Source: Cyclobacteriaceae bacterium | GTDB lineage: Bacteria > Bacteroidota > Bacteroidia > Cytophagales > Cyclobacteriaceae | Direction of reading: 5' to 3' | NCBI GenBank assembly: GCA_027067135.1 | Contig: JAMOMJ010000456.1 | Coordinates: 1 to 60,584 of the forward strand | Length of the DNA: 60,584 nucleotides | Shown: one piece after another, positions 2,020 to 24,081 of the stretch | How positions within the stretch are numbered: the stretch's first letter is position 1 | How the letters are laid out: every line of letters begins with the position of its first letter | Notes under the pieces: generated by a model | Told to the model about the DNA's origin: nothing | Database searches by the model: none | What the model saw: only the letters and a program-made list of their open reading frames with translations | Translations under genes and position numbers: made by a program

Positions 2020-2021
2020 AA

Positions 2022-5570: not shown

Positions 5571-5574
5571 CGTG

Positions 5575-7245: not shown

Positions 7246-7269
7246 TTGTAAACTTGTAATTAAATTAAT

Positions 7270-7835: not shown

Positions 7836-7841
7836 AATAGT

Positions 7842-9515
7842 ATGGATATTCAAATTTGGACGTATATAATCGTTGGGTTATCATTTTCGTTATACATAGG
7901 TATTGCACTATGGAGCAAGGCCGGTAGCACAAAAGAATTTTATGTGGCAGGTGGAGGTGTATCGCCACTTGCCAATGGTATGGCTACTGCTGCCGACTGG
8001 ATGTCAGCAGCTTCTTTTATTTCAATGGCCGGCCTTATTTCTTTTATGGGATACGATGGTGCCGTTTACTTAATGGGCTGGACAGGCGGCTATGTATTAC
8101 TTGCGCTTATGCTTGCCCCATACCTGAGAAAGTTTGGAAAATTTACGGTTCCTGATTTTATTGGTGATCGTTATTATTCCAATATAGCACGTAGTGTTGG
8201 GGTTGTGTGTGCTTTAATAGTTTCGTTTACGTATGTTGCCGGGCAAATGCGCGGAGTGGGAGTTGTTTTTGCCCGTTTTTTGGAAGTACCTGTAAATACA
8301 GGTGTAATTATAGGAATGATTATCGTGTTTTTTTATGCTGTTTTAGGCGGCATGAAAGGCATTACCTATACCCAGGTAGCCCAGTATTGTGTGCTGATAT
8401 TTGCGTATATGGTACCTGCCATTTTTATTTCCATTCAGCTAACCGGTGAGTGGCTTCCTCAAATAGGATTTGGCAGCGAACTGGCAGATGGCTCCGGCAC
8501 CTACTTGCTTGACAAATTAGATGGTTTACATGAGGAGCTTGGTTTTGCAGCTTACACCTTAGGGTCTAAATCTACCCTTGATATGTTTGCCATTACCCTT
8601 GCTCTTATGGTAGGCACGGCAGGGTTGCCTCATGTAATTGTCCGCTTTTTTACCGTACCGCATGTGCGCGATGCAAGGATGTCAGCCGGGTATGCACTGG
8701 TATTAATTGCTATCCTTTATACCACGGCTCCTGCCATTGCTGCTTTTGCACGAACCAATTTAATTGAAACCGTTTCTAATGCTGAGTATTCCACAGTTCC
8801 CGATTGGTTTAAAAACTGGGAGTCAACGGGGCTAATATCGTTTACAGATAAAAATGCAGATGGCAAAATTCAGTATGTAGCCGATCCGGCTCAAAACGAA
8901 TTAATTATTGACAGGGACATAATAGTTTTAGCCAACCCTGAAATTGCTCATTTGCCCAACTGGGTAATAGCTCTGGTAGCAGCCGGTGGGTTGGCTGCCG
9001 CCCTTTCTACTGCCGCAGGGTTGTTGCTGGTTATTTCTACCAGTATATCTCACGATTTAATAAAAAAGCAGATAAAGCCTGATATTTCGGACAAAGGCGA
9101 GCTTATGTGGGCAAGAATAGGTGCCGGATTAGCTGTAATTGTTGCCGGCTATTTTGGTATTAATCCGCCCGGTTTTGTGGCTGCCACCGTTGCCCTGGCT
9201 TTTGGCCTGGCTGCAGCATCGTTTTTCCCTGCCATAGTTTTGGGCATATTCGATAAACGAATGAATAAAGAAGGTGCAGTAGCAGGCATGGTTATTGGCA
9301 CCTTACTAATGCTGTTTTATATGGTTAAATTTAAGCTTCAGGGCTTTGGTGGGGGAACGGAAGACGAGTGGTGGTTTGGTATTTCTCCTGAAGGGTTTGG
9401 AACAGTAGCTATGCTTGTTAATTTTGTAACATCAATTACTATTTCAAGGTTTACACCTCCGCCACCGGCAAACGTACAGGCTATTGTTGATTCCATAAGA
9501 GAGCCGGGAGATTAA
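7842..9515 (+). CDS. Sodium:solute symporter (ActP/VC_2705-like cation/carboxylate symporter)
   Basis: 557-aa polytopic SSS-family sequence, paired with the DUF4212 gene. Confidence 0.8.
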   Translation: MDIQIWTYIIVGLSFSLYIGIALWSKAGSTKEFYVAGGGVSPLANGMATAADWMSAASFISMAGLISFMGYDGAVYLMGWTGGYVLLALMLAPYLRKFGKFTVPDFIGDRYYSNIARSVGVVCALIVSFTYVAGQMRGVGVVFARFLEVPVNTGVIIGMIIVFFYAVLGGMKGITYTQVAQYCVLIFAYMVPAIFISIQLTGEWLPQIGFGSELADGSGTYLLDKLDGLHEELGFAAYTLGSKSTLDMFAITLALMVGTAGLPHVIVRFFTVPHVRDARMSAGYALVLIAILYTTAPAIAAFARTNLIETVSNAEYSTVPDWFKNWESTGLISFTDKNADGKIQYVADPAQNELIIDRDIIVLANPEIAHLPNWVIALVAAGGLAAALSTAAGLLLVISTSISHDLIKKQIKPDISDKGELMWARIGAGLAVIVAGYFGINPPGFVAATVALAFGLAAASFFPAIVLGIFDKRMNKEGAVAGMVIGTLLMLFYMVKFKLQGFGGGTEDEWWFGISPEGFGTVAMLVNFVTSITISRFTPPPPANVQAIVDSIREPGD

Positions 9516-9652
9516 GAAATTTTATCAATCATTACTATCAATTACTATTGCAGCAAGCTTAAATAATAATACTTGTACCGTATTATTGCTTTAGATTTAT
9601 CATATAGTTGGATTCCAAAAGGGTTTTGGTTTTTTTGAATAATGACAAAAAA

Positions 9653-10225
9653 ATGATCTCAAAAATAATTGAGCACCTGCTGCACTATATAAGCCTTAGT
9701 TCTGATGAAATCACTGCCATCAGCGAATCTATTCCAATACAAAGTTTTAGCAAAGGAAGCATTTTATTAAAAGAAGGAGAGGTTTCAAAACATGCATATT
9801 TTAATATTAAGGGGTGCGTACGACTTTACTATTTAATTGACGGGGAAGAAAAAACCACTTTTTTCTATACCGAAAACCAATTTATAACTTCGATTAAAAG
9901 TTTTACCAATAGAGTGCCTGCACACCACTTTTTAGAGTGCGTTGAAGATTGTACTCTAGGAGTATTATCCTACGAAGCAGAAATATATTTACTTAAAAAA
10001 TTCCCTAAATTCGAATACCTGTCTCGTATTTTACTAGAAGAAGAACTGGGTCATTATCAGGATATGCTATCAACTTATATTACTACCAAACCCGAGGATA
10101 GGTATAAAAAGCTATTAAAGTTAAATCCTCAGTTATTGCAAAGAATTCCACAATATCAACTTGCTACTTTCTTAGGGGTAACCCCCGAATCATTAAGCAG
10201 GATTCGGAAAAGAATAATTCAGTAA
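9653..10225 (+). CDS. Crp/Fnr family transcriptional regulator
   Basis: cNMP-binding-like beta-roll (GSILLKEGEVSKHAYFNIKGCVRLYY) and a C-terminal HTH (QLATFLGVTPESLSRIRKR). The track ORF starts at a TTG (9608); I prefer the first ATG at 9653. Confidence 0.75.
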   Translation: MISKIIEHLLHYISLSSDEITAISESIPIQSFSKGSILLKEGEVSKHAYFNIKGCVRLYYLIDGEEKTTFFYTENQFITSIKSFTNRVPAHHFLECVEDCTLGVLSYEAEIYLLKKFPKFEYLSRILLEEELGHYQDMLSTYITTKPEDRYKKLLKLNPQLLQRIPQYQLATFLGVTPESLSRIRKRIIQ

Positions 10226-10307
10226 GAATCCATTTCTTACCTTTAGTCAATGAAATATAAACATTAGACAGATAGTTTTGGTACTTTAAATTAAACTCGC
10301 ATTAATT

Positions 10308-10691
10308 ATGAGTTATCAAAAATTCAGCATGACTTTAGGCTTCCTTATCTGGCTGGTGGCAACATTGCTCTTCAGGTTTTATGGAGCAGATTTCTTTTTA
10401 ACAGAGGATGCCATGGTGATGGGTACATTTTATTTTGGCATTATTCCTTTGTTATACTTATTAGTTAATTGGATGTTTAAAAAATACCGATTATCCAAAA
10501 CAGATAGAATACGGAGTGTAGTTTTAATGATACTTCCTGGGATGGCCTTAGACACCTTATGTATTAAATATTATTGGGTAGTATTTCCGGCTTTTTCGCA
10601 AGAAACAGCCGTAACATTAGGTTCCTGGGTAATTTGGGTTAATTTTATTATTTTAATAATTGGACTGCTTTCAAAAGAAAAAGGGGAATGA
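10308..10691 (+). CDS. Small 4-TM membrane protein (possibly DUF5367-type)
   Basis: 127 aa with four hydrophobic segments. Its last ~51 codons are duplicated as a fragment at 32613-32768. Confidence 0.6.
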   Translation: MSYQKFSMTLGFLIWLVATLLFRFYGADFFLTEDAMVMGTFYFGIIPLLYLLVNWMFKKYRLSKTDRIRSVVLMILPGMALDTLCIKYYWVVFPAFSQETAVTLGSWVIWVNFIILIIGLLSKEKGE

Positions 10692-10751
10692 CGGCAAACA
10701 ATTAGAGGCTAATGCCTTCTAAAACTTACACCTCCCTCAATATTTTAGCAG
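10536..10751. repeat. Left copy of a 216-bp direct repeat (pairs with 32613-32828)
   Basis: Hand alignment is gap-free with about 19 mismatches (~91% identity). It contains the 3' end of gene 10308-10691, a spacer and an antisense copy of the last 8 codons plus stop of galT (10726-10751). Confidence 0.85.
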
Positions 10752-10817
10752 AAAAAAAGTAACTATCTGATTAATTTTCAGATACTTGAACATATAGCCT
10801 TTCTGTTTGTATACTAC

Positions 10818-10836
10818 TAACCTGAGTTCGGGATAA
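10818..10836 (+). repeat. Half-copy of palindromic element (TAACCTGAGTTCGGGATAA)
   Basis: 19 nt identical to 31201-31219 and to one arm of the complete palindrome at 59765-59828. Confidence 0.7.
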
Positions 10837-10966
10837 TAGTTAAACATGTTAAAACCAGAACTCAAACAAGAGGAGAAAACAGAAGCGGCCTCCCCTACTG
10901 AATTACCCTTCTTTTGAAGGAAATCGCTGGTTCCAACTCTCAAGAAAGCAGAATTGGTAAAGAGGA

Positions 10967-13900
10967 TTATTTTGAAACAACTATCCTTTTTGAGATTCTT
11001 TTGTCACTTAATACTATACCTATATAATAAATCCCATTGGGATAATTTCTAAAGTCCAAAACAAAGCTCTGTTTACTATTTTTATTAGTTTTAATAAAAA
11101 TAGTTTTCCCGTAAGCATTATATATCTTAATGAATTTTACCTGCTTAAATGATGCACCTACATTGAGATATACCTTCTCATTTGTTGGATTTGGATATAT
11201 GGCAATTGTATTATCGCCTTCTCTTTTGTTGATTCCTGTAATTAAAGGAGCGTCCAAAAGAGATATAGCTTCTTCTGGAGTTAATGCGTAATCATATATT
11301 AATACTTCATCAATTAAACCATTATAATTAAAGTCATTATTATCATCAGCTAGCATTCTTCCCATAAGAAAATCATAGGAAGTACTTTTAATGCCTCCCT
11401 CCAACTTGGTAGAACTATCCAGTTTCCCATTGATATATAAAAGGACATAAGTTCTGTCATAGGATGCCACAATATGGTAGAACTGACCATTTTTCAACTC
11501 ATCGCTACTATCCACATCTTTAATTGATAGTGAAGTGTTGAGTGTCCATCTCACTTTTCCCGAATTTATAGAAAGCTTCCACCTATTTTGCCAACTACCA
11601 TGAGATAGAATAAAAGACTCATTACCAATTGATAAATTATCAGGCCTAATCCAGCAGCTAACTGTTATAGCATCAGAAAAGTTTAATGTGTTATCATTAT
11701 CTACTTTGATAAAATCGTTTTGTCCATCAAAAAGATAAGCATTATTAGCATTTCCATCTAAATCTTCGGTTGCAGTAGCTCCAAACACTTGCCCATGCAG
11801 GTTATTCCCACTATAATCATCAGCATTCCCAGAAAAGGAATAATAAGCAATGAGGCTACCTGTATTAGGTATTGAATAGTCTTTAACAAGAAACTTTAAT
11901 TTCCCCTCAACTGTTCCACCCATCCCGTCTTCTACTAGTACGCTCACTTTATATATCCCTTCTGCAGATGGACTTTCCCATATTACTTTATCACCCTCAC
12001 CCGCAATAGTCCCATCACTTACAGACCAGTTATAAAGCAAATTATCACCGTCTATATCTTCTGCTACACAAGAAATTTCAACCTCTTCTTGCGGATTAAT
12101 ATTATTTATAGCTGAAAACATATCTATGATGATGGGTGCAGAATTAATATGATCCACTGCTTCAATACTTATAGACTTACTAGTTTTATTAAGTTGCTCG
12201 TCTGATACAGTGACAACTATTTGATAATTTCCAATAGCAGGTGCAGTCCACGAAATCGTTTCGGTTACTTCTGTAAGTTGCTCTCCATTTACAGTCCAGC
12301 TATAGGATAAAACTTCTCCTTCTTTATCGGTAGCTGTTGCATAAATAGTAGCTACATCCCCAATTTCGAGTAATGGATTAGTAACAGCTAAGCTTTTTAT
12401 TCTTGGAGGGCTATTATAAGTTTGGCTCGTTTGCATATAATCTACCACAATATCATTGATAAGAAACTTATTAAGGTCATAACTAACAGTTCCTCCGGAA
12501 GGAACTACAACCAGTTCAACTGCTTTATCTGCACCAATATCAAAATTGGTGTCTCCAGTTACATCCTGAGCTATAAAAGTTTCTGTTAATGCATCATACA
12601 AGTCCACTGGGGCTGATCCAACATCTATAATTACTGTTTTAATGCTAGAATAAGGGTTGTAATACAAAAAAGTGGGATAAGCATCTTCCTTATAAAAATC
12701 GGTTTTTAACAGATCGAGCTGGAGTATTTTTTCCACATTCGTAGTTTTAATAATGCCACCAAAAATACCTACAGATGATGAGCCATAGAGGGCAAGGTTT
12801 GTATTTGCCCAGCCTGCAGCTACTGCATCACCCGTAGAAAATGGCCCCAGGTTCCCATTCATTTTTTCCCTTAAACCCTCATAGCCAATATATCCATTAG
12901 GGTCATGCATATTTGACCAATTGGAAGCATCTTGTTGTTCAGCAGGTAAAAACCCTGGATAAAACAAACGTGATGCATTGGCTAAGTTGAGCATCCATTT
13001 ACCTATGGCTCGGGCAAAACGCTTATCGTACCTAACCATAGGCACAAGCGCACCGGCATGCTGAAAGCCATTCATTAAAAAAGCATAATCATTGCCCTGA
13101 TCGTTGGCTTCACCAATAAGGCCGAAAGCTTCCACTCCATTCCAATTTCCAATAATTGCACCCCAACCTCTTAATTCTCCCCTATCAAATGTCCAATTTA
13201 GCATCTTTTCAATATCATAAGATGTGCCAATTTGAGCATTCATTTTGGCAGCCACATATATACCGTAGGGTAATTGAAGTTCATACGAAGGATTTGAACT
13301 AAGATTGTTTAAAAACTCCATGCTCCATTCCGCCCCTTTTAAATAGCTGGAGTCTCCTGTTTCGATATAAGCGTTATACAATAGCCAGGCTATGCCTCCG
13401 GCAGCTTCGGGTTCTTTTACACCAGTAGTCAAAGGTGTCATAGTTGCCAGATTCCAGGCCCGATAGTTCATAAATGGCACTTCCCAGGGCGTATCAGTTC
13501 CTCCCATGGTTTTTACGGCTGTTAACCATTGGTTGGCAACAGATGTAAACTGAAAATCAGCATCGCCTATGCCCGGGTATAAATCATTGAGCTGATAAAA
13601 ATAGATATTGGGCATAATGTCGTACCACCAATCATTCCCACTATTTCCATTATAATTATTGAGATAGACGTTCTCTTCGGCTCTTTTATTAAAAAAATCC
13701 TGTGCCATCAGCACCCAGTTTATGTTGTTTTGGTCACCTTTATCTACTCCGGCAAGCGTAGCTCCTATTAGCGAAGGAAGCACATTAATGGCTTCTCCGC
13801 TTTTAGCAAAAAATGTGCCTACATAGGAGTCTAACCCAAAATTTTTATTTTGAGGATAATTGACTCCTTCATCACTCATAAAAACAAGTGGCAGGTAATC

Positions 13901-14083
13901 TCCAGTTTTATCAATATCAAATACCAGGCTATCATACCCTATTGTTACACGCTCCCAATTTCGCATAAAATAGGGCGAAGGGGTGTTGGGCATTTGTTCA
14001 ATACGATTTATGGTAACTTGATTTACCTGCGCATTAACAAACCCATTAAACAAAAGTATAAATGCCAGTAAGGATTTTTTCAT
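10967..14083 (-). CDS. T9SS-secreted multidomain protein: unassigned N-terminal ~540-aa domain, two PKD/Ig-like repeats, LamG (concanavalin-like) domain, Por/T9SS C-terminal sorting domain
   Basis: Signal peptide MKKSLLAFILLFNGFVNAQ (the track ORF starts 15 codons upstream at 14128). The N-terminal domain is paralogous to ORF 19969-21690 (INRIEQMPNTPSPYFMRNWE vs IKRVEGMPNQPTPYKMLDWK; DWWYDIMPNIY vs DWWYDVFPNVL; IGKWMLNLANASRLFYP vs IGKWTLNTANATRLCYP). The PKD-like repeats show as YSWTVNG... and YNWSVSDG... The LamG-type block is YYSFSGNADDYSGNNLHGQ...IDEVLIYDYALT. The C-terminus is IYPNPTNEKVYLNV...ISKRIVVSK. Confidence 0.7.
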   Translation of the reverse strand: MKKSLLAFILLFNGFVNAQVNQVTINRIEQMPNTPSPYFMRNWERVTIGYDSLVFDIDKTGDYLPLVFMSDEGVNYPQNKNFGLDSYVGTFFAKSGEAINVLPSLIGATLAGVDKGDQNNINWVLMAQDFFNKRAEENVYLNNYNGNSGNDWWYDIMPNIYFYQLNDLYPGIGDADFQFTSVANQWLTAVKTMGGTDTPWEVPFMNYRAWNLATMTPLTTGVKEPEAAGGIAWLLYNAYIETGDSSYLKGAEWSMEFLNNLSSNPSYELQLPYGIYVAAKMNAQIGTSYDIEKMLNWTFDRGELRGWGAIIGNWNGVEAFGLIGEANDQGNDYAFLMNGFQHAGALVPMVRYDKRFARAIGKWMLNLANASRLFYPGFLPAEQQDASNWSNMHDPNGYIGYEGLREKMNGNLGPFSTGDAVAAGWANTNLALYGSSSVGIFGGIIKTTNVEKILQLDLLKTDFYKEDAYPTFLYYNPYSSIKTVIIDVGSAPVDLYDALTETFIAQDVTGDTNFDIGADKAVELVVVPSGGTVSYDLNKFLINDIVVDYMQTSQTYNSPPRIKSLAVTNPLLEIGDVATIYATATDKEGEVLSYSWTVNGEQLTEVTETISWTAPAIGNYQIVVTVSDEQLNKTSKSISIEAVDHINSAPIIIDMFSAINNINPQEEVEISCVAEDIDGDNLLYNWSVSDGTIAGEGDKVIWESPSAEGIYKVSVLVEDGMGGTVEGKLKFLVKDYSIPNTGSLIAYYSFSGNADDYSGNNLHGQVFGATATEDLDGNANNAYLFDGQNDFIKVDNDNTLNFSDAITVSCWIRPDNLSIGNESFILSHGSWQNRWKLSINSGKVRWTLNTSLSIKDVDSSDELKNGQFYHIVASYDRTYVLLYINGKLDSSTKLEGGIKSTSYDFLMGRMLADDNNDFNYNGLIDEVLIYDYALTPEEAISLLDAPLITGINKREGDNTIAIYPNPTNEKVYLNVGASFKQVKFIKIYNAYGKTIFIKTNKNSKQSFVLDFRNYPNGIYYIGIVLSDKRISKRIVVSK

Positions 14084-14232
14084 ACTAAAAATAAATGTAG
14101 ATTTCTTGTTATAAGAAGACTTAAACAATTTTTAGAAAGTTTAAAGCTTTCTGAAAATTAACTACATAAAAAAGACGATAGGATAAACCTACCGCCCTTT
14201 TAACCAAGCAATAATCAATCTAATTAACTATA

Positions 14233-15288
14233 TTATTTTTCATCATCATAAATACTTTTTACCTGCGGCCCTGTAAGAACCGTATTATAAATTCTTAGCT
14301 CATCCATTGAGCCATTAAAATAGCCTCCCCACGCTTCAGGGATAATTTGATCATTGTCATAATTATCAGGCGTATCGGCATATTTACTTGAACCTACCCC
14401 AATAGCAAGGTTATGACCTGTTACATTAACCAAATCACCAGGAAGCGAGGCTACCCTATTTGTTTCAAAACCATCAATATAAAACACCATTTCACCACCA
14501 CCAAAACTTACGGCAAGGTGATACCATTGGCCAGTATTTAAAACAGGGTCAGTATCTTTATCATAAATACCCTCAGATGAAGCAGCAGTAAAAAAGGCTT
14601 TATTGGCTGACTGTAACTGAAACTTATACCCATTCCAAGAATGTAACCCTAAAAAACGATTACTTTCTCTTATTTCTGCTGCATTTACCCATAATGCAAT
14701 TGTTATTTGAGCTGGGTTAATTGCTGCATTATAAGGCACTTCAACCCATGCTCCGCTATTAAACGAGATAGCTTTACCTGCATTGCCATTACGGTCTTCT
14801 GCCCATACAGGATCTCCTGCACCCCAATTTGTACGACCTGTATTAAATGTGCCATCAAAACCATTACCCGAAGCGTCAGCAGCCGAAGTGCCACTACCCT
14901 CATTGAATTTCCAGTAACCCACAAGCGTGGCGGGGTCAATAGCTGCGATTTTCTTTGTTTCATAAAGATCCATAGCTGCTTGTAATGCTGTAACTGTGTT
15001 ATCAACGGCAGTTTGATCTGATGTTTTAGAAGCTACTACAACTTTTGCATCGCCAATTACTTTCTGTAGCTCTACTTTAGAACCAATCTCATAATCACCC
15101 ACATCGGCACCTTCTGAAGTTGTAGAAATAAGGGTTTCAGCTTCGGAAATTTTAGCATTTAATGCTGCAAAATCTGCTGGTTCTACTACTGGTACAGGAT
15201 CATCTTTACAACCACTTATCAAGGCCATACTTGCTATGGCAACAAAAAGCAGTAATGAACCAACTTTTGTAAATTTTAACTTTCTCAT
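14233..15288 (-). CDS. Surface lipoprotein with helical N-terminal region and LamG/concanavalin-like domain (SGBP-like, downstream of SusD)
   Basis: Lipobox LISGC; WKFNEGSGTSAADASGNGFDG...MDELRIYNTVLT is typical of Laminin_G_3-type domains. Its position directly after susD is typical of surface glycan-binding proteins. I prefer the internal ATG (MRKLKF...). Confidence 0.65.
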   Translation of the reverse strand: MRKLKFTKVGSLLLFVAIASMALISGCKDDPVPVVEPADFAALNAKISEAETLISTTSEGADVGDYEIGSKVELQKVIGDAKVVVASKTSDQTAVDNTVTALQAAMDLYETKKIAAIDPATLVGYWKFNEGSGTSAADASGNGFDGTFNTGRTNWGAGDPVWAEDRNGNAGKAISFNSGAWVEVPYNAAINPAQITIALWVNAAEIRESNRFLGLHSWNGYKFQLQSANKAFFTAASSEGIYDKDTDPVLNTGQWYHLAVSFGGGEMVFYIDGFETNRVASLPGDLVNVTGHNLAIGVGSSKYADTPDNYDNDQIIPEAWGGYFNGSMDELRIYNTVLTGPQVKSIYDDEK

Positions 15289-15318
15289 AATTTTAAAGGT
15301 TTGTTTATACATAAATTA

Positions 15319-16827
15319 TTAATTTGAAATTGCATTATTTGTGTCCACTTCACTTTGAGGAATAGGGAAATACCTGTGAGTGGCATAGTTGAAATTAGTA
15401 TCGGATAGTGCTGCCTCCGCTGTAGTTGTACCATACCTCATCAGGTCGTAAAACCGATGAAATTCAAAGCCCAGCTCTACTCTGCGCTCATGCCGGATAG
15501 CTGTTCTTAAAGTACTCTGATTTGTACTGATTACATCGGGTAATAAACCAGCTGGAATTGCTCCAAAACCGGGTAGGGTTTCATCAAACATGTAGCTTTC
15601 GCGTGCTCTCTTTCTTACTTCATTTAATGGAATTAAGGCTTCTGCACCACTCCCAAGCTCATTAAGTGCTTCTGCTTTAATTAAAAGTACTTCGGCATAG
15701 CGCATAAACGTGTAGTTTAAATCTCCATCTCCTTTAGTTCCAGTGCCTATTTCGGATAATGGTTGAATATGCTTTTTCTGTAAATAGCCGGTTTCCGGAG
15801 ACCAAGCCGGGTCAAAATCTTCACCATTAATCCATTTTTGGTTTTCTCTTCCAACCGTATAATCCAGCCGTGGGTCAATAACTCCTCCTCCAGTTACTTC
15901 AAACTCATCAACAAAATTTTGGGTAGGTGCATTAAAGAAATAGCCATTTTCAACTTGTGGTGAAAACCACTGGTTTAAATTACTACCCAAAAAAGGAACC
16001 TGGCCTGTTAAATGCTGAATTTCAAATATGGATTCAACATTATTTTCATATGAAAACTCGAAATTATTTCTATGAAGAGGCATAAGCGAGTACCCTGATT
16101 GCTCCAGGCTCGTAATTGCATCTAAACAAGGTTGCCATTTTTCCTGAAACAAAAGAGCTTTGGCAAGCAATCCCAAAGCGGCACCTTTGGTTGCCCTACC
16201 CGTTTCAGAACTTTTATACGAAACAGGCAATACCTGCGAAGCTTCCGTTAGGTCTTGTTCTATCTGTAAGTAAATGTCGGCAACAGACGATACCGGAACA
16301 TGTAAATCATCGGATGAAAATGCAGGTTGTGTTTTTAAAGGAATTTCTCCAAAAATATTTACCATATGAAAATAGAAGTAAGCCCTTAAAAATTTGGCTT
16401 CGCCAACTATTCGCTGCTTTAACCCATTATCCATTTCTATATCAGGCACATAGTAAATTACTTTGTTAGCTCGTGTAATGCCTTCGTAATAATGTTTCCA
16501 AATCGACTCTATAAATCCATTATCCGGATTAATGGTAAACTCATCAATAAATCCCATATCGCTTTGGTCACCAGGATTTCCGCCTTTTTTAGCATCATCA
16601 GATGCCACATCTCCAAATACCCATAAATTGTTATTAATATTTTTAAACGCAGTAATTTCATAAGTTGCGTTAATTGCAAATACAGCATGCTCTTTAGTTT
16701 GATAAAAAGAGCTATTGCTATATACACCCTGCAATTCTGTATCCAGAAAATCTTTGCACCCTGTGCCGATAACAGTTAAAAATAGAACTGTACAAAGGGT
16801 TGTTATTTTAAAATTTATCTTTTTCAT
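15319..16827 (-). CDS. SusD/RagB family nutrient-binding outer membrane lipoprotein
   Basis: 502 aa with lipobox (GTGCKDFLD). It has a TPR-like SusD pattern (RAYFYFHMVNIFGEIPL, YAEVLLIKAEALNELG, ERRVELGFEFHRFYDLMR) and follows a SusC gene. Confidence 0.9.
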   Translation of the reverse strand: MKKINFKITTLCTVLFLTVIGTGCKDFLDTELQGVYSNSSFYQTKEHAVFAINATYEITAFKNINNNLWVFGDVASDDAKKGGNPGDQSDMGFIDEFTINPDNGFIESIWKHYYEGITRANKVIYYVPDIEMDNGLKQRIVGEAKFLRAYFYFHMVNIFGEIPLKTQPAFSSDDLHVPVSSVADIYLQIEQDLTEASQVLPVSYKSSETGRATKGAALGLLAKALLFQEKWQPCLDAITSLEQSGYSLMPLHRNNFEFSYENNVESIFEIQHLTGQVPFLGSNLNQWFSPQVENGYFFNAPTQNFVDEFEVTGGGVIDPRLDYTVGRENQKWINGEDFDPAWSPETGYLQKKHIQPLSEIGTGTKGDGDLNYTFMRYAEVLLIKAEALNELGSGAEALIPLNEVRKRARESYMFDETLPGFGAIPAGLLPDVISTNQSTLRTAIRHERRVELGFEFHRFYDLMRYGTTTAEAALSDTNFNYATHRYFPIPQSEVDTNNAISN

Positions 16828-16830
16828 AAT

Positions 16831-19800
16831 TTAAAATGTTACCTGTAATCCTAAATTAAAAGAAACTGCCGTTGGGTATGTTCCCCACTCTATACCGGCT
16901 GCTTTATCCCCTTCAGCAGTTGAATTATCGCTGGTGGTCATTTCCGGGTCAAGCCCTGGATATTTTGTAAGCGTAAACAGATTGTTTGCCAAAAAGTAAA
17001 CCCTGCACTTTTGTAAGAACAACCTATCCAACAAGTTTTTAGGTAACTGATAGCCAATTTGAAGGGTTTTTAATCTGGTATAAGAACCATCTTCTAAAAA
17101 CCGGGTAGAAGGTTTTGTATTATTGGGTTTGGCTTTCCACGATGGTCTAGGTTGTGTATTACTGCTACCTTCCCCTGTCCATCGTTCATCATAATACCTT
17201 TTTGTAAGGTTAAACGGCCTGTAAAATCCTTCGATATCTGTGGCAACCTGATAATAAATTTGCTGGCCATAGGCACCCTGCACAAAAACGGTAAAATCAA
17301 AATTTTTATAATTTATCCCCAGGTTTGCTCCCAGTATCATATCAGGGATGGACTTACCTACAAAAGTTCTGTCGTTTGCATCTATAATACCATCACCATT
17401 TTGGTCTTTATATTTTATATCTCCCGGTTGAATTTGGCTACTGCTTCCCTGAATAGCGTGGGTAATAATATCGGTTGAGTTCTGGAAGATTCCTTCCATT
17501 TCGTAGAGGTAAAATGAGCCAATAGGCTGTCCTTGCACGGTTCTAGTAGCCCAAACACCATTATCAATTCGGGCATTTTGATACACACCATCAAGTTCCA
17601 GCACCTCATTTTTTATCGTGGCTACATTGGCACTAATCGAGTAATTCAGATTATCAGATATTTGCCCATTATGCTCTAATTCAAACTCAATACCTGTGTT
17701 TAGCACTTTCCCATCATTTACCCAAGACGGAGTTGCATATCCTGCCGAAGAAGGATTTGTATTAATCATCAACTGATCTCTTGTTACTTTTCGGTAATAA
17801 TCCAGTGCCACTATTAGCTTGCCCGAATAAATACTTATATCTGCACCTATATCCAATTGGGTACTTGTTTCCCATTTTATATCGGCATTACCCAATGCAG
17901 TAGTTGTATATCCCCCTTGTGCAATGTCTCCTAATGGGTATTCAAAACCGGGGTTAATTTTTTCTAAATAGGCAAAATTGTCGATGGCTTGATTTCCATT
18001 AGCTCCATAACCAATCCTTAATTTTAATTGATCTATCATATTGCTATTAGCAAGAAATGCTTCCTTATCAATTCTCCAACCTAGTGATACCGAAGAAAAT
18101 GTACCCCATCTGTTTTCCTCTACAAACCGGGTAGAGCCATCCCTTCGTATAATACCTGTTAATAAGTATTTTCCTTTAAAATCGTAATTAACTCTGGCAA
18201 AATAAGAAAGCAGCCTGTACTCCCAAATAGCTTCAGAAGTACTTATGATTCCTTGTCCGTTTCCCAGGTTAATTAGGTTTAAATTCTGATCTGCAAAATC
18301 CCTTTCGGTGGTTACAGTAGATTCACTGTTAACTGCTATGGCTTCTGCTCCTATAATTGAAGAAATAGTATGACTGCCAAATTCGTAATCGAAGTTAATC
18401 AGGTTAGTCCACGACCAATTAAAGTTTGACCCGTTATATACCGATAATGAATTGGGGTTATTAATCCTGTCATTGGTTCCCCATGTTTTATTAAATCTCC
18501 TGCGCTTATAATTATTATTGTCTATTCCAAATTTTGTACTAAAACTAAGGTTTTTAGCAAAATCGATTTTGGCATTAATATCTCCTAAAATCTGAACATC
18601 TTTATTTACATTATAGGTATTATTGGCAAGGCCTACGGGGCTATACCCATCTCCAAAAAACTCCGGGTTATTAGGTAAATCAACAAATTCACCATTTTTA
18701 TCGTAAATTGGTATGGCCGGTGACCTAAAAAAAGCATATCTGATAACACTACCTCCATTGCCTCCAAATCCATCACCGGAGCTGCCAATAATGTTGGTGG
18801 TGGATTGTGCCACATTTAGGTTTACTCCAATATTAAACCATTCTTTTGCTTGTGTACTTACACTTACTTTACCTGTTAATCGCTGATAATCACTTCCAAT
18901 TATTATTCCTTCCTGTCCAAAATAACTACCGGAGATACTATAATTGGTTTTTTCGTTTCCTCCACTGACCCCCAGGTAATAATTTTGAAGTATCGCCTTT
19001 CTAAAAATTTCATCCAGATGACTTATATCAGGCAATGTATCTGCCATAGCTTCGGTTATTTTATTCCTCTGCAATGCAAGAGGAACACCCACATTATCGT
19101 AATCGGCAGCTTCGTTATATACTTCTATGTATTCGTCTTTATTGGTCATTGGAGTTAAACGCCCAACCTGTTGAATACCAACACTTGAGTTGAAAGTGAT
19201 TTGAGTTCCGCCTGAACGGGAACCTTTTTTTGTGGTGATTAGTACCACACCATTATTAGCCCTTGACCCATAAATAGCTGCTGAAGCCGCATCTTTTAAT
19301 ACACTAATTGATTCAATATCAGCGGTAGAAAGGTAATTCATAGCGTTTTCGGTGGGTACACCATCAACAATGTAAAGTGGTGCGTTTCCACTGTTTATTG
19401 AGCCTACGCCCCTTATCCTTACTGCTACGCCAGCACCAGGTGCCCCTGTAGTTTGTGTAACATTTACTCCCGCAGCCAATCCTTGCATAGCTTGTGTAAC
19501 ACCCGGTGTTGGAATCCTGATTAAATCTTCGGGCTTAACAGAAGCCACTGCACCCGTTACATCCGCTTTTTTCTGTACCCCATAACCTGTAACTATAATT
19601 TCATCCAGAATCTCTACATCGGCTTCCATAGATACATTAATTGAGGTTTGGCTACCTACTAAAATTTCAATCGCTTTATAGCCTACATACGAGAATATAA
19701 GAACATCAGAACTGCTTACATTACTTAATGTATAAGCCCCATCCATATCGGTAACTGTACCGTTTTGGGTTCCTTTAATTTGAATAGTAACCCCCGGCAA

Positions 19801-19923
19801 TGTGGTGCCGTCTTCCGAATCTGATACTGTGCCAGAAATGGTTGTACCTTGTCCATACGTCTGAGAAAAACTGCCAATAAGCAAACATGCGATGGAAATA
19901 CACTGTAAAATTTTAGATTTCAT
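16831..19923 (-). CDS. SusC/RagA family TonB-dependent outer membrane transporter
   Basis: 1030 aa. It has a carboxypeptidase-regulatory-like N-domain (ISGTVSDSEDGTTLPGVTIQIKGT), a plug region (IIVTGYGVQKK...LKDAASAAIYGSRANNGVVLITTKKG) and a C-terminal aromatic residue (LGLQVTF). Confidence 0.92.
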   Translation of the reverse strand: MKSKILQCISIACLLIGSFSQTYGQGTTISGTVSDSEDGTTLPGVTIQIKGTQNGTVTDMDGAYTLSNVSSSDVLIFSYVGYKAIEILVGSQTSINVSMEADVEILDEIIVTGYGVQKKADVTGAVASVKPEDLIRIPTPGVTQAMQGLAAGVNVTQTTGAPGAGVAVRIRGVGSINSGNAPLYIVDGVPTENAMNYLSTADIESISVLKDAASAAIYGSRANNGVVLITTKKGSRSGGTQITFNSSVGIQQVGRLTPMTNKDEYIEVYNEAADYDNVGVPLALQRNKITEAMADTLPDISHLDEIFRKAILQNYYLGVSGGNEKTNYSISGSYFGQEGIIIGSDYQRLTGKVSVSTQAKEWFNIGVNLNVAQSTTNIIGSSGDGFGGNGGSVIRYAFFRSPAIPIYDKNGEFVDLPNNPEFFGDGYSPVGLANNTYNVNKDVQILGDINAKIDFAKNLSFSTKFGIDNNNYKRRRFNKTWGTNDRINNPNSLSVYNGSNFNWSWTNLINFDYEFGSHTISSIIGAEAIAVNSESTVTTERDFADQNLNLINLGNGQGIISTSEAIWEYRLLSYFARVNYDFKGKYLLTGIIRRDGSTRFVEENRWGTFSSVSLGWRIDKEAFLANSNMIDQLKLRIGYGANGNQAIDNFAYLEKINPGFEYPLGDIAQGGYTTTALGNADIKWETSTQLDIGADISIYSGKLIVALDYYRKVTRDQLMINTNPSSAGYATPSWVNDGKVLNTGIEFELEHNGQISDNLNYSISANVATIKNEVLELDGVYQNARIDNGVWATRTVQGQPIGSFYLYEMEGIFQNSTDIITHAIQGSSSQIQPGDIKYKDQNGDGIIDANDRTFVGKSIPDMILGANLGINYKNFDFTVFVQGAYGQQIYYQVATDIEGFYRPFNLTKRYYDERWTGEGSSNTQPRPSWKAKPNNTKPSTRFLEDGSYTRLKTLQIGYQLPKNLLDRLFLQKCRVYFLANNLFTLTKYPGLDPEMTTSDNSTAEGDKAAGIEWGTYPTAVSFNLGLQVTF

Positions 19924-19968
19924 CTGTTTATAATTTATTATTATCGGGCATATTTCTAACTAATACTT

Positions 19969-21690
19969 TCATAAATAAAAGGCTGTTTTTCCATTAATAA
20001 CTGCCTCGCCTTCCCGGTATTCTACAGTACTTCCTGCCGGAATTACTATAATGAGCCGGGCTTCATCACCAGAAATGGTGAACTTACCTTCTGTTTCAAT
20101 ATTTTCAGAAACAGTTGTTCCTGTCAGTACATCAAACAGGTCTATGCTTTCATCTTTTTTGTTATGATAAATAATTTCCTTATTGCCTGGATAAGGGTTA
20201 TAGTATAAAAACATGGGGTAATTATGTTCTGCATAAAAATCAGTTGCCTGACAGTTTAGTTTAAGAATTTGCTCTACATTGGTTTCTTCTATAATTGCCC
20301 CGAAAATCCCTACATGAGCCGAGCCATAAATACTAAACATAGACTGTTCTGGTTGACTAACCACCCAATTAGGGCCGTCTCCCAAGGCTACAGGGCTTAC
20401 TCCTTTAAGGCTTTCTTTATTGTATGCATCAGTTTTTTTAACGCCTTCATATGCAATTACATTTTTGGTTATTTTCTTAAGTTCTGGCAGCCACTGGTTT
20501 TCATCAGGAATTTCATACGGATAACATAAGCGTGTGGCATTTGCAGTGTTCAGCGTCCATTTGCCTATTGTTTTGGCAAGTTGAGGATCGTATTTAACTA
20601 AAGGAACAAGTGGCCAGGCCATATCAAACGTGTTCATTAAAAAGCCGTACCCTCCTTCGTGGGTTAAACTTCCCTGCATTCCATGTATATCATATTCTCC
20701 CCATCTTTCACTCAAAATCCCCCATCCTGTTCTGCCATCCTCTGCTACACATCCATCATACGTCCAATCTAAAATTTTCATTACATCATAGCTGGTTCCC
20801 TGTTCCGCATTCATCCTTGCTGCTGTTAAGGCTCCAAAAGGCATTAGCACTTCATAAAACCTACTTTCTTTTTGGCTTAGTAGTGCTTCAAGAGCCGATT
20901 TCGCCCCATTTAGGTATTTTTCATCCCCAAATTTTTTGTAGGCGGCATATAACACATACGCATGTCCTGCGGCTGCATCTTGCTGGTATGGAATTTGGTT
21001 TCTTTTTCCTTCCATTACTGCATAATCAAAATAGGAGTAATCATAATTTCCAGCCAATACTGAATCTGCTTTATAAAATTGTTCTGCAATTGTTCTTTGT
21101 ATTTGGTCTGCACCATCTACCTCAGGGAATAATTCACAAACCGCATAATAAAGTACGTTAGGAAAAACATCGTACCACCAATCGCGCCCGTAACCGCCTC
21201 CAAGCATTGCAATACCGGGGTTGGTATTGTTCATTATTATGTTCCACCCATTATCAGAATTAAAATAGTTCTGCACCATTTTAACATAATTATAGCCATC
21301 CTGATTAGTCTTATCTATTCCTACCAGCCCTGCACCCATTATTGCGCCCAACGAAGCAAGTGCCTCGTGAAATTCGCCATTATTAATACCAGACCCCTGG
21401 CGTAAATCACCAATTACAGTAAATAACCCAAATGTGTTTTGCTCTATATTTCTGTGGGCACTATCAATCCAAATTAAAGGCAGATACTCACCTTTGGCAT
21501 TATGATTAAATACATAGCGGTCAAAGTTGATTGCCTTTTCTTTCCAATCCAGCATTTTATAGGGCGTGGGCTGATTGGGCATCCCTTCTACCCGCTTAAT
21601 TGCAACCTGTGTAACTGTTACAGGTTCAGGCTTATTACAACTAGCAATGGCTGAAATAATGATTAATAATAGTGTAGTATATCTGTTCAT
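19969..21690 (-). CDS. Lipoprotein of unassigned family, paralog of the N-terminal domain of 10967-14083 (candidate glycan-degrading enzyme)
   Basis: 573 aa with lipobox (IASCNK). It is collinear with the N-terminal ~540 aa of the T9SS protein and is the first gene upstream of susC in the same operon-like run. Confidence 0.6.
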   Translation of the reverse strand: MNRYTTLLLIIISAIASCNKPEPVTVTQVAIKRVEGMPNQPTPYKMLDWKEKAINFDRYVFNHNAKGEYLPLIWIDSAHRNIEQNTFGLFTVIGDLRQGSGINNGEFHEALASLGAIMGAGLVGIDKTNQDGYNYVKMVQNYFNSDNGWNIIMNNTNPGIAMLGGGYGRDWWYDVFPNVLYYAVCELFPEVDGADQIQRTIAEQFYKADSVLAGNYDYSYFDYAVMEGKRNQIPYQQDAAAGHAYVLYAAYKKFGDEKYLNGAKSALEALLSQKESRFYEVLMPFGALTAARMNAEQGTSYDVMKILDWTYDGCVAEDGRTGWGILSERWGEYDIHGMQGSLTHEGGYGFLMNTFDMAWPLVPLVKYDPQLAKTIGKWTLNTANATRLCYPYEIPDENQWLPELKKITKNVIAYEGVKKTDAYNKESLKGVSPVALGDGPNWVVSQPEQSMFSIYGSAHVGIFGAIIEETNVEQILKLNCQATDFYAEHNYPMFLYYNPYPGNKEIIYHNKKDESIDLFDVLTGTTVSENIETEGKFTISGDEARLIIVIPAGSTVEYREGEAVINGKTAFYL

Positions 21691-21696
21691 ATTATT

Positions 21697-23013
21697 TTAT
21701 GCGCTTTCTAATACAGGTTCATCTTTAGGGCCAGGTATTTTTTTAATTTCCTTTTGCTGGTTTGCTTCCTTAGTTATATGCTTGGCCACGGGTATAGAAA
21801 TTAATTGCAAGGCAGCTATAATTAGTATAGAATATTTTAGGGAGAAATCAATGGATACATAATTTGATAAGATAAGGAATAGTATCAATCCTAAAAATCT
21901 GCCTACAAACAAGCCAAATTCGTGATTAAAAATATAGGCAAATTCGCTTCTCTTTTCTTTTTTTACCAGAATATCAATTACTTTCATTTGAATAGGAAAA
22001 TAAGCGATGTCGTGCAGAGGTCTGAATAGCACCAGGCATAGCACGAATATCATTACACCTGTAGCTGAAAATAGCATAGCATTAGCAAAAGAGCCTATAA
22101 AAAAGATAAACAGACCTACTGTAAAAATGGCAATCCTGTGTTTGGGCTTGCTTACCCTGCCAAGTATATAAAGGGCAATAGCAGTTACAATTCCGCTAAT
22201 ACTTTGAATTACTCCTAATGAATTTTCATCTCCCAGTAATCGCATCACCAATATAGCTGGTGCCGTTACCAAAAAGCCCTGTGCCAGCCCTTTTAAACCA
22301 GACAGAAATAACATTTTATTCCAGAGCTTGTCGAATTTAAAATACACGAATTTTTTTTGTGTAGGGTTAGTAAATTTCCCTTTATGGATAATTAAACTTG
22401 ATAACACCGTAATAATAAGTACGCAATAAGTAACTATACGGTAGGCAGAAGCTATATCACCGTTTTTAAACCAGTCAAAACTTTGATAAGAAACCAAAAA
22501 CGAGCCAACGGCAAAAGGAACAATGATAGACGTGGTGGTAAAAAAGAAGGTTTCAAGGCCATAGTAGTAATTTCTATTATCATCTTTGGTAGTGATAAGT
22601 GCTAGAAAATCACGATTTGCCCAAAAGAAACCAAACGAACTGCCCATAATTAATCCGGCAAATGCCACACCGAATAAATCCATATTATCAAGCGACATCA
22701 TTACCAACATAGAAATACCGCTTAATATCATACCAAAACTATACAGGTTGGATATATTGAATTTGTTAAGCAAAAAACCATTGATTAAAAATGTAAAAGG
22801 GATACCAACATATAAAAACATTTGGTAAGTAGCTACCAAGTTGGGATCGTTTGAGCTACGCATAATGTATGCACTTACAAAAATATCTACAACGGGTAGT
22901 ACAAAAGCATACACCATATTGGTAACTAGCAATACCCGCATGTTGCGAGGCATACTTAAAAAGAAGTTGTACTCGATCAATGGCTTTTTTAAAATGTTTA
23001 AAATTGCTTTCAT
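21697..23013 (-). CDS. MFS transporter (probable oligosaccharide importer)
   Basis: 438 aa with ~12 hydrophobic helices, located between the cytoplasmic GH130 gene and the PUL outer-membrane genes. Confidence 0.7.
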   Translation of the reverse strand: MKAILNILKKPLIEYNFFLSMPRNMRVLLVTNMVYAFVLPVVDIFVSAYIMRSSNDPNLVATYQMFLYVGIPFTFLINGFLLNKFNISNLYSFGMILSGISMLVMMSLDNMDLFGVAFAGLIMGSSFGFFWANRDFLALITTKDDNRNYYYGLETFFFTTTSIIVPFAVGSFLVSYQSFDWFKNGDIASAYRIVTYCVLIITVLSSLIIHKGKFTNPTQKKFVYFKFDKLWNKMLFLSGLKGLAQGFLVTAPAILVMRLLGDENSLGVIQSISGIVTAIALYILGRVSKPKHRIAIFTVGLFIFFIGSFANAMLFSATGVMIFVLCLVLFRPLHDIAYFPIQMKVIDILVKKEKRSEFAYIFNHEFGLFVGRFLGLILFLILSNYVSIDFSLKYSILIIAALQLISIPVAKHITKEANQQKEIKKIPGPKDEPVLESA

Positions 23014-23022
23014 ATTATTTGT

Positions 23023-24081
23023 TTAGCTTTCCTGCTTATTGGTTAGTGTTTCCAGTATTTGTTTAATTGAGAAAGTTGCCCCACAAATAACTTCATCTGA
23101 TGCACCATAATAAATGGTAATGGTATCTCCATTTACTATATGCCCGTTTGTAAAAACAACATTGCCAAAAAAGCCTGTTTTTTCATAGTCCATAATGGGC
23201 TCCATAATAGGTTCTTCTGATCTGGCAATAACCTTTGAAGGGTCTTGCAGGTCGAATAATAATGCGCCCAAACAGTAACGATTTTCACTATTGGCTCCGT
23301 GGTATATTTCGAGCCAGCCTTTGGGTGTTTTAATAGGTGATGCCCCGGCTCCGATTCTGGCACTGTCCCATTTGCCTGGCCTAGTTACGGCAATACATAT
23401 ATGGTTTCCCCAATGCACTAAATCTTCCGATTCGGCCAGCCAAATATAATTCCCTCCTAAATCAGGGCTACTGGGTCGGTGCAGGGCATAATATTTACCA
23501 TTAATTTTTTCTTCAAACAGGGCACAATCTTTATTATGGGGCGAAAATATCATCCCTTTTCTGTTATACTCTTTCCAGTTATTGGTTTGAATGTACCCTA
23601 CTCCCACCCCTGTGCCTGATACCTTGGTATAGGTTAAATGGAACCCATCTTCGAAGGCTGCAACCCTGCAATCCTCAATACCATACGCTTCGGATTTGCC
23701 TTCTCCATATATAGGCGGAAATTCATTTTCTTCTTTAAAGTCAACACCATTAAGGCTGCTTACCAGCCTTAAATGCGACATAGTTGTTAAAAAATAATCT
23801 TCTTTATATTTAATAACCCTGGGATCGGAAAAGTCAAAATCAGGATCGTTTTTATCAAACGATATAATTTTTATACCCTTGCCATCCTCCAAAACAGGGA
23901 AACTAACTTTGCCTTCCTTTTGTACAGGGCGTTCTGCAACCCTAAGCAATAACCAAATTTTGCCTTTATATATAAAAACACCTGGATTTAGAAGACACTC
24001 TATCACCAAGCCCTCATTGCTTGGCTTAATGTCTTTTGGAGACATTATTGGGTTTTCTTTAAATCTTTTGGCAATATCCAT
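23023..24081 (-). CDS. GH130 family glycoside phosphorylase/hydrolase (beta-mannoside-type), cytoplasmic
   Basis: 352 aa with no signal peptide. The five-bladed propeller GH130-like sequence shows as NPGVFIYKGKIWLLLRVAE, GIEDCRVAAFEDGFHLTYT, ALHRPS, GAGASPIKTPKGWLEIYHGA and ITIYYGASDE. Whether it is a phosphorylase or a hydrolase cannot be decided by eye. Confidence 0.7.
   Translation of the reverse strand: MDIAKRFKENPIMSPKDIKPSNEGLVIECLLNPGVFIYKGKIWLLLRVAERPVQKEGKVSFPVLEDGKGIKIISFDKNDPDFDFSDPRVIKYKEDYFLTTMSHLRLVSSLNGVDFKEENEFPPIYGEGKSEAYGIEDCRVAAFEDGFHLTYTKVSGTGVGVGYIQTNNWKEYNRKGMIFSPHNKDCALFEEKINGKYYALHRPSSPDLGGNYIWLAESEDLVHWGNHICIAVTRPGKWDSARIGAGASPIKTPKGWLEIYHGANSENRYCLGALLFDLQDPSKVIARSEEPIMEPIMDYEKTGFFGNVVFTNGHIVNGDTITIYYGASDEVICGATFSIKQILETLTNKQES

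Follow-up and report, generated by a model that had tools for sequence, protein, structure and literature searches.

A candidate unclassified glycoside hydrolase-like family encoded beside predicted β-1,2-mannoside phosphorylases of family GH130

Two paralogous proteins encoded by a polysaccharide utilization locus (PUL) of a Cyclobacteriaceae bacterium are candidates for an unclassified family of glycoside hydrolase-like enzymes. The locus lies on contig JAMOMJ010000456.1 (GenBank assembly GCA_027067135.1), of which positions 1 to 60,584 of the forward strand, 60,584 nucleotides in all and hereafter called the window, were analysed. The first paralog, X, is a lipoprotein, and the second, X′, carries the same domain in its N-terminal half and ends in a sorting domain of the type IX secretion system (T9SS). 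We propose, at a probability of roughly 0.55, that X and X′ depolymerise β-1,2-mannoside glycans, X′ as a secreted and X as a probably periplasmic form. The evidence consists of the homology of the two proteins, the predicted fold and conserved acidic residues of their shared domain, and its recurrent association with GH130 genes across phyla.

Results

X and X′ share a domain that matches no known family

The N-terminal half of X′ aligned end to end with X in BLASTP (37% identity and 55% positives over 561 columns, E 8e-112), which is far above chance and bears out the homology that a sequence-only reading of this DNA had proposed from a series of motif blocks, all of which are present in the alignment. 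The same reading had described X′ as carrying two PKD-like repeats, a LamG domain and a T9SS sorting domain, all of which scored above the Pfam thresholds, and X as a lipoprotein, in keeping with its lipobox (IIISAIAS preceding the Cys). The two genes and their parts are as follows.

19969-21690, minus strand: X, 573-aa lipoprotein (lipobox; AlphaFold2 barrel and β-sandwich)
10967-14083, minus strand: X′, 1038-aa T9SS protein (open reading frame [ORF], signal peptide and domain matches)
12398-14083, minus strand: catalytic-type domain of X′, N-terminal ~560 aa including the SPI signal peptide (paralogous to X)
11894-12373, minus strand: two PKD/Ig-like repeats of X′, aa ~571-730 (PF22352, aa 578-640; PF18911/PF00801/PF17963, aa 647-729)
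11270-11728, minus strand: LamG domain (Laminin_G_3) of X′, aa 786-938, putative glycan-binding module (PF13385, E 6.5e-27)
10976-11200, minus strand: T9SS type A C-terminal sorting domain of X′, aa 962-1036 (PF18962, E 4e-11)

When read from the ATG at 14083, X′ begins with a normal signal peptide (MKKSLLAFILLFNGFVNA, cleaved before Q); the mechanically called ORF begins at a TTG at 14128. With this N-terminal Sec signal and a Por_Secre_tail above cut-off at its other end (PF18962, 43.5 bits against 27; TIGR04183, 32.1 bits against 23), X′ has both signals of a T9SS type A cargo protein. In X, the lipid-anchored Cys is followed by NKPEP, and the acidic surface-export motif is absent. Since 0-1 acidic residue occupies the five positions after this Cys, in X as in most of its orthologs, the sequence suggests that X probably faces the periplasm.

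No Pfam-A (2025) model matched the shared domain above threshold, and NCBIfam release 20 (June 2026) returned no match. The lone Pfam match, to the D-glucuronyl C5-epimerase C-terminus (PF06662), scored 19.5 bits against a cut-off of 23.3 and covered one helical hairpin (aa 220-273). When 46 members of the family were searched against Pfam at E ≤ 1, sub-threshold single-hairpin matches of this kind recurred, to C5-epim_C in 15 of the 46 (best E 6e-4) and to LANC_like in 8, two models that we take to belong to the same six-hairpin Pfam clan; DUF1680, the model for GH127/GH146, was absent even at E ≤ 1. PDB sequences (2026 copy), searched with phmmer and with a 46-sequence profile, yielded nothing meaningful, the only matches being to a DnaJ fragment and a T9SS C-terminal domain at E ~0.7-1. 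Novelty was judged against Pfam-A, NCBIfam, PDB and annotation names, not against the CAZy hidden Markov models. Literature searches, with paywalled papers outside their scope, found no β-1,2-mannanase, no mannogen-degrading hydrolase and no description of the locus of Uhgb_MS, the characterised GH130 phosphorylase to which we return below; those aimed at 2-mannanase-type enzymes yielded α-1,2 enzymes only.

Together with the remote structural similarity described below, the lack of matches in Pfam-A, NCBIfam and PDB sequences supports the earlier suggestion of a not-yet-classified family, and we consider it quite probable that the shared domain represents a family of carbohydrate-active enzymes that Pfam, NCBIfam and PDB lack. 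CAZy adds families faster than Pfam and NCBIfam do, and the domain could belong to an established CAZy family created recently enough to have neither a Pfam or NCBIfam model nor a structure. This seems decidedly improbable in view of the empty searches of Pfam-A 2025, NCBIfam of June 2026 and PDB (by sequence and by profile), the lack of any close structure up to April 2026, the uninformative annotation names of the members and the fruitless literature searches for a β-1,2-mannanase.

The family is widespread and keeps a set of acidic residues

When 1.84 billion cluster representatives were scanned exhaustively with HMMER, 1041 clusters (50% identity) matched at E ≤ 1e-3 and 362 at E ≤ 1e-30. 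Word-indexed searches retrieved thousands of family sequences, and members go by such names as 'hypothetical protein', 'laminin G', 'discoidin domain-containing protein' and similar. Sources named for members include Bacteroidota, Bacteroidales, Marinilabiliales, Cytophagales, Saprospiraceae, Ignavibacteria/Ignavibacteriae, Calditrichia, Marinimicrobia, Gemmatimonadota, Rhodothermales, Streptomyces, Gaiellaceae (Actinobacteria), Planctomycetota and Acidobacteria. The domain is found joined to SLH, F5/8-type-C (CBM32-like), FN3, PKD, LamG and T9SS C-terminal domains, all of them typical additions to secreted glycanases; the first three occur on long members and are usual for secreted Gram-positive glycanases.

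Across 112 diverse copies, the acidic residues E109, E280, E296, E415, D438 and D484 were at least 90% conserved, as were the tyrosines at positions 173, 188, 279, 348, 367 and 455 and the arginine R387. Mapping of invariant acidic residues between the paralogs and their homologs had been proposed earlier, and the conserved acidic set proved to be kept in both X and X′. No Cys, His or Lys reached 90% conservation in these copies, and the absence of a conserved Cys or His argues against both a cysteine mechanism of the GH127/146 type and a His-based epimerase mechanism.

X is predicted to fold as a six-hairpin barrel followed by a β-sandwich

From the 46-sequence alignment, AlphaFold2 modelled full-length X (pLDDT 91.9, pTM 0.92) with an α-helical barrel spanning aa ~27-470 and, after it, a β-sandwich (aa ~476-572). 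When modelled by itself, the barrel reached pLDDT 91.0 and pTM 0.93. The (α/α)6 barrel that had been guessed from the sequence is thus what these confident models display, with the β-sandwich in addition.

Searched with Foldseek against PDB entries up to April 2026, full-length X matched GH127/GH146 β-L-arabinofuranosidases first (E 2e-7, TM 0.33-0.40, ~10% identity), with GH78, GH94, GH9, GH116 and GH88 ranking after them. For the barrel alone, the best matches were GH116, YPO2471, GH88/105, GH76, GH127, GH94 and the cellobiose/glucose 2-epimerases (TM 0.36-0.49, 10-13% identity), none of them below E 1e-3. Match probabilities were 0.95-1.0 even though TM did not exceed 0.49, and the matches in general were six-hairpin carbohydrate enzymes. 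Because the barrel-only search gave weaker matches than the full-length search, hidden membership of GH127 is disfavoured; GH144 and GH162 were absent both from the Pfam matches at E ≤ 1 and from the top 50 Foldseek matches of either model. As modelled, X is a member of the six-hairpin superfamily, but none of the families whose structures have been solved includes it. In the model, E109, D170, E280 and N353 lie at the N-terminal starts of predicted helices, the probable position of an active site by comparison with six-hairpin enzymes.

Among the better Foldseek matches of the full model was 7xdi_F, the tail protein of the archaeal virus SSV19 (E 2.5e-6, TM ~0.32), which suggests that this tail holds a six-hairpin, possibly glycan-active, module.

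The same searches bear on whether X and X′ might be non-hydrolytic, that is, polysaccharide lyases or epimerases or isomerases of the C5 or AGE type. Such a role could be read from the recurrent sub-threshold C5-epimerase matches, from the weak Foldseek matches, which include cellobiose/glucose 2-epimerases and a single polysaccharide lyase, and from the several conserved tyrosines which, with Asn and Arg, recall the (α/α)n lyases. Yet the Pfam match amounts to one hairpin below cut-off, no His is conserved, and none of the 88 loci examined (see below) contains uronate-metabolism genes. Furthermore, the mannoside phosphorylase encoded alongside implies neutral mannosides, which lyases do not cleave, and secreted epimerases would not yield products with a degree of polymerization (DP) of 2-3. 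A non-hydrolytic activity therefore appears very unlikely, and the family most likely consists of glycoside hydrolases.

The partner GH130 is predicted to phosphorolyse β-1,2-mannobiose and -triose

The GH130 gene of the window, at 23023-24081, codes for a protein with ~70% identity to Uhgb_MS over 346 aa (PDB 9EQQ/9ERG/9ERH, 556 bits). Uhgb_MS, a phosphorylase of GH130_4, acts with inversion and specifically on β-1,2-mannobiose and -triose, a lid loop barring longer chains (PMC12814180). In GH130, an E/K pair at the +1 subsite marks enzymes with β-1,2 specificity (PMC7660257). R47, R88, V89 (lid), E136, D137 and K184 are all kept in the window protein, and R47, R88, E136, D137 and K184 in 68 of 68 syntenic GH130 genes. 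The NCBIfam model for β-1,2-mannobiose phosphorylase scored 424 bits, under its equivalog cut-off of 550. In its homology, E/K pair, lid residues and lack of a signal sequence, the product of 23023-24081 has the characters of a GH130_4 β-1,2-mannobiose/triose phosphorylase, and as judged from its sequence the pathway would end with Man-β-1,2-Man(-Man) + Pi -> α-Man-1-P + Man. Since this GH130 takes only DP2-3, an upstream step must make DP2-3 products from a larger glycan. The wide panel of β-mannans, galactans, β-glucans and algal polysaccharides on which the lipoprotein was to be screened can be narrowed to β-1,2-mannosides by the kinship of the GH130 with a characterised phosphorylase.

β-1,2-Mannan occurs in Candida, in trypanosomatids and in some O-antigens, and the source of β-1,2-oligomannan for Thermoanaerobacter was not identified (PMC4264767). 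The paper on Uhgb_MS does not discuss the genomic context of the enzyme (PMC12814180).

X, GH130 and a sugar importer form a conserved locus in Bacteroidota

In the window, a minus-strand operon codes in order for GH130, a major facilitator superfamily (MFS) transporter, X, SusC, SusD and a LamG lipoprotein, with X′ following after a 149-nt gap. The gaps between operon genes are 3-45 nt, SusC and SusD being 3 nt apart. Adjacent SusC and SusD genes, co-oriented glycan genes and a dedicated, divergent hybrid two-component system (HTCS) regulator mark the locus as a PUL, whose genes other than X and X′ are listed here.

23023-24081, minus strand: GH130, predicted cytoplasmic β-1,2-mannobiose/triose phosphorylase of GH130_4 type (~70% identity to Uhgb_MS)
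21697-23013, minus strand: MFS transporter (PF07690, E 5.9e-10), presumed inner-membrane importer of di- or trisaccharide
16831-19923, minus strand: SusC-type TonB-dependent transporter (CarboxypepD_reg-like, Plug and β-barrel domains)
15319-16827, minus strand: SusD-family lipoprotein (PF07980, E 6e-35; PF14322, E 5e-26)
14233-15312, minus strand: LamG lipoprotein, candidate surface glycan-binding protein (PF13385, E 6.8e-22; lipobox SGC, followed by KDDP)
26871-31058, plus strand: HTCS, divergent from the operon (Reg_prop, Y_Y_Y, HisKA, HATPase_c, Response_reg and HTH_18)
24962-26869, plus strand: GH42-like protein without signal peptide, between HTCS and GH130 (PF02449/PF08532, E ~1e-11)

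The LamG lipoprotein noted earlier after SusD is found there, and its lipobox Cys is followed by an acidic motif of the surface-export type (KDDP), which we take to resemble the Bacteroidota surface-export signal. This lipoprotein and X′ have homologous LamG domains (27% identity, E 3e-12). Inspection of the N-termini of GH130 (MDIAKRFKENP) and of the GH42-like protein revealed no signal sequence, as the sequence-only reading had stated.

More than 548 relatives emerged when one genome per GTDB species was scanned, and the best 80 loci were kept and searched with the window proteins. MFS genes accompany X in 76 of these 80 loci, SusC in 72, GH130 in 68, SusD in 67, HTCS in 59, the LamG lipoprotein in 51 and a second, X′-type paralog in 43. 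The order GH130-MFS-X-SusC-SusD is nearly always that of the window. Where full flanks were available (n=48), GH130, MFS, SusC and SusD were all present in 46 loci and the second paralog in 32.

The locus is reduced to six genes (GH130, MFS, X, SusC, SusD and HTCS) in Bacteroides xylanisolvens XB1A, where the flanks are unrelated housekeeping genes. There X is the only exported, non-cytoplasmic candidate enzyme, which adds to the support for the proposal of a not-yet-classified family. Bacteroides, which to our knowledge lacks a T9SS, keeps X only. A contig from RNA run X20, bearing the same species label and with a flanking gene at 95-99% identity, departs from the XB1A reference (locus L038, ~7243-20612) at ~7243, and only a 31-nt match returns at ~20612; the whole six-gene PUL thus seems to be present or absent between strains.

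The GH42-like gene, which had been counted among the recognisable enzymes of the PUL, fell outside the conserved locus. It was found in 1 of the 80 loci, that of the nearest relative (L001, a Roseivirgaceae metagenome-assembled genome whose X is 93% identical to that of the window), and we reject it as a core enzyme; it is a recent, lineage-specific addition.

X homologs adjoin GH130 genes outside PULs as well

Eight further contexts were examined, giving 88 loci in all. One of them (L082) is a SusC/SusD locus and was not counted as independent; the other seven contain the following genes.

L081 (Gemmatimonadota): GH130 (E/R), GT4 fused to a mannose-1-phosphate guanylyltransferase domain, GH94-like
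L083: ABC sugar transporter, GH130 (E/K), GH2 β-mannosidase-like, GH94-like
L084: ABC sugar transporter, two GH130 ORFs (E/K), GH2-family gene, two ORFs homologous to the GH94-like protein
L085: GH130 absent
L086 (Streptomyces aculeolatus): LacI, ABC transporter, GH130 (E/K), GH92 with CBM32
L087: LacI, ABC transporter, two GH130, two tandem X paralogs with CBM32 modules, GDSL esterases
L088: LacI, GH130 (E/K), GH94

A GH130 gene lies within 10 kb of the X homolog in six of these seven loci, with the E/K pair in five and the E/R pair in one. The GH130 proteins of L086 and L088 are only ~27% identical to that of the window. Among solved structures they are closest to Teth514_1788/1789, which are β-1,2-oligomannan and β-1,2-mannobiose phosphorylases, and next to the GH130_3 β-1,2-mannosidases. 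Other genes of these seven loci also point to mannose, namely the GH2 β-mannosidase-like genes, the GH92 and the GT4 fused to a mannose-1-phosphate guanylyltransferase domain. Because GH130 genes are few per genome and the adjacency is nevertheless seen repeatedly, chance does not account for it. It recurs in different phyla, with different types of transporter and with different GH130 subfamilies, and no other functional evidence is as strong.

Three other proteins or modules were observed in these loci. An ~830-aa GH94-like/MGH1-like protein adjoins X′-type genes in L081 (12561-15041), L083 (13159-15675) and L084 (13166-15656). Its copies are 39-48% identical to one another, the one in L084 being split into two ORFs; no PDB sequence is related to it at E ≤ 1e-5, none of the 80 Bacteroidota loci contains it, and it is a second uncharacterised partner of six-hairpin type. 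A conserved protein of 869/884 aa that has no Pfam domain accompanies X, GH130 and the ABC transporter in the LacI-regulated L086 (436-3045, S. aculeolatus) and L087 (1809-4463, a metagenome contig), the two copies sharing 26% identity (E 4e-33). Each of the tandem X paralogs of L087 bears two CBM32-like modules.

A proposed pathway and the points that weigh against it

We propose that X′, having left the cell through the T9SS, would use its PKD and LamG modules while cutting a glycan that contains β-1,2-mannan or β-1,2-oligomannosides at or near the surface. The LamG lipoprotein and SusD would capture the fragments and SusC would import them, after which X would trim them to DP2-3 in the periplasm. 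The MFS transporter would move the DP2-3 mannosides into the cytoplasm, where GH130 would convert them to α-mannose-1-phosphate and mannose, and the HTCS would sense an intermediate and induce the operon. The presence of both copies in 43 of the 80 loci would be accounted for if an ancient duplication had given rise to one secreted and one periplasmic form. The X/X′ family is the best current candidate for an endo-β-1,2-mannanase; that it is one, acting with GH130 phosphorylases from gut Bacteroides to marine Cytophagales, Ignavibacteria-type bacteria, Gemmatimonadota and Streptomyces, is a tentative proposal to which we give somewhat less than even odds.

X and X′ could instead be non-catalytic, binding glycans or serving as scaffolds while the PUL imports ready-made short oligosaccharides. 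The activity of X and X′ is indeed deduced, and a minimal PUL such as that of Bacteroides could take up small β-1,2-mannooligosaccharides directly. However, Glu, Asp and Tyr residues are highly conserved across ~1000 clusters and several phyla, the structural neighbours found all use such a six-hairpin barrel (450 aa) as a catalytic scaffold, and members carry binding modules of their own (CBM32-like, LamG). Moreover, the GH130_4 lid admits only DP2-3 (PMC12814180), so chains need to be shortened. We regard a purely non-catalytic role as very improbable.

Several points weigh against a family of β-1,2-mannoside depolymerases. The likeness to known glycosidases stays at the level of the superfamily (TM 0.33-0.49, 10-13% identity). 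β-1,2-Mannan is not known to be abundant in the environment, an odd fit with a locus of such wide ecological distribution, and the true substrate may be a heteroglycan or heteromannan, or an α-mannan capped with β-1,2-linked residues. Among the non-PUL loci, the GH130 of L081 has the β-1,3-type E/R pair, and L085 has no GH130. RNA contigs of B. xylanisolvens, from runs whose conditions are coded, show low basal transcription, one of them spanning GH130 to SusC. Finally, a review table lists Uhgb_MS as accepting α-1,2-mannobiose too (PMC8950772), and a GH92 α-mannosidase with CBM32 adjoins the Streptomyces homolog.

The last two points also speak for a variant in which the family and the logic of the locus are the same and another bond is cut, for example an α-mannosidic or other backbone linkage in a heteromannan of yeast/fungal or bacterial type, which would free β-1,2-linked Man2-3 fragments or caps. 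GH76 α-1,6-mannanases and GH47 among the barrel-level Foldseek matches, and the GDSL esterases and GH2 enzymes of other clusters, are likewise consistent with it. Nevertheless, the GH76 and GH47 matches are no better than those to unrelated six-hairpin families, and the Bacteroidota PULs contain neither an α-mannosidase nor an accessory glycosidase, which fits a simple homopolymer better. This variant is unlikely, though not negligibly so, and depolymerisation of β-1,2-mannosides is the reading that we retain.

Other features of the window

A 153-aa ORF between GH130 and the GH42-like gene (24237-24698, minus strand) contains a HisKA-like H-box, SHKVRAPL (PF00512, E 3.5e-5, below cut-off); we rejected it as a fragment of the neighbouring HTCS, to which it has no significant similarity. 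On the other side of the locus, 487-7245 (minus strand) codes for two lipoproteins, one with a β-helix and one GH31/DUF6259/GHL6-like, and for an amidohydrolase and an SSF transporter; the 80 X loci keep none of these. This cluster may be another small module for glycan use. Its β-helix and GH31/DUF6259-like lipoproteins (487-4166) were rejected as parts of the X/X′ system, being found in 0 of 80 loci and separated from it by transporter and regulator genes.

Downstream of the HTCS lies a Leloir-pathway cluster (galT, galK) with a sodium:solute symporter (32803-36884, minus strand). In a single 480-aa ORF (37214-38656, minus strand), part of a GntP-family permease (aa 1-275, matching positions 39-317 of the 440 in the profile) runs in frame into part of a glycerate kinase (aa 240-477, matching positions 138-371 of 372). 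This ORF looks like a deletion that fused two neighbouring genes, or an assembly artefact.

Discussion

By architecture, the closest known enzymes are those of GH127/GH146 (HypBA1, BT3674; DUF1680), in which an (α/α)6 barrel is followed by one or more β-sandwich domains and which gave the best full-length Foldseek matches. They differ from X in that the barrel alone matches them only at E ≥ 0.01 and that X has neither a DUF1680 match in Pfam nor a conserved Cys; GH127/146 enzymes use a Cys nucleophile held by a Zn-Cys3 site. With the wider six-hairpin superfamily (GH116, GH88/105, GH76, GH94 and AGE-type enzymes), X shares the barrel topology. No member family, however, matches the barrel below E 1e-3 or at a TM of 0.5, and their catalytic residue sets are not recognisably conserved in X.

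A functional parallel may be found in the use of β-1,2-glucan. The endo-β-1,2-glucanases of GH144 and GH162, themselves (α/α)6 enzymes, shorten a β-1,2 homopolymer to oligosaccharides that are imported and phosphorolysed by GH94. The system proposed here would act by analogy on mannose instead of glucose, with a GH130 β-propeller in place of GH94.

Hydrolysis of β-1,2-mannosidic linkages is described for the GH130_3 β-1,2-mannosidases BT3780, BACOVA_03624 and Dfer_3176 (PMC4599007, and ref. 21 as cited in PMC12814180), and we found no other hydrolases for β-1,2-mannosides in the searchable literature. The GH130_3 enzymes are exo-acting five-bladed β-propellers, whereas X has an unrelated α-helical barrel and accompanies GH130 phosphorylases rather than replacing them. 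Systems for β-1,4-mannan pair a secreted GH26 mannanase with a cytoplasmic GH130, as in B. fragilis BF0771-0774 (from references cited in PMC12814180 and PMC7660257). The B. fragilis system resembles the present locus in its secreted depolymerase, sugar importer and cytoplasmic GH130 phosphorylase. The β-1,4 systems differ in having a GH26 or GH5 depolymerase where the window has an unclassified barrel, and in an epimerase that is absent here; in addition, the GH130 of the window carries the β-1,2 signature (E/K) and not that of β-1,4 (Y/R).

Biochemical and structural work has characterised β-1,2-mannoside phosphorylases (Teth514_1788/1789, Lin0857, Uhgb_MS), and the X family is a candidate for the missing step upstream of them, with homologs in culturable strains such as Bacteroides xylanisolvens XB1A and Streptomyces aculeolatus. 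If our proposal is correct, X and X′ would define a new glycoside hydrolase family with a new enzyme activity, and thousands of proteins now annotated as 'hypothetical' or 'laminin G' would gain a functional label. The enzyme could serve to analyse or degrade β-1,2-oligomannoside epitopes, such as those of Candida or the mannogen of Leishmania, and in metagenomes of gut, soil and marine origin the PUL would mark the use of β-1,2-mannosides. The β-1,2-mannans and oligomannosides of fungi, kinetoplastids and bacteria would then be a far commoner source of carbon in the environment than has been recognised.

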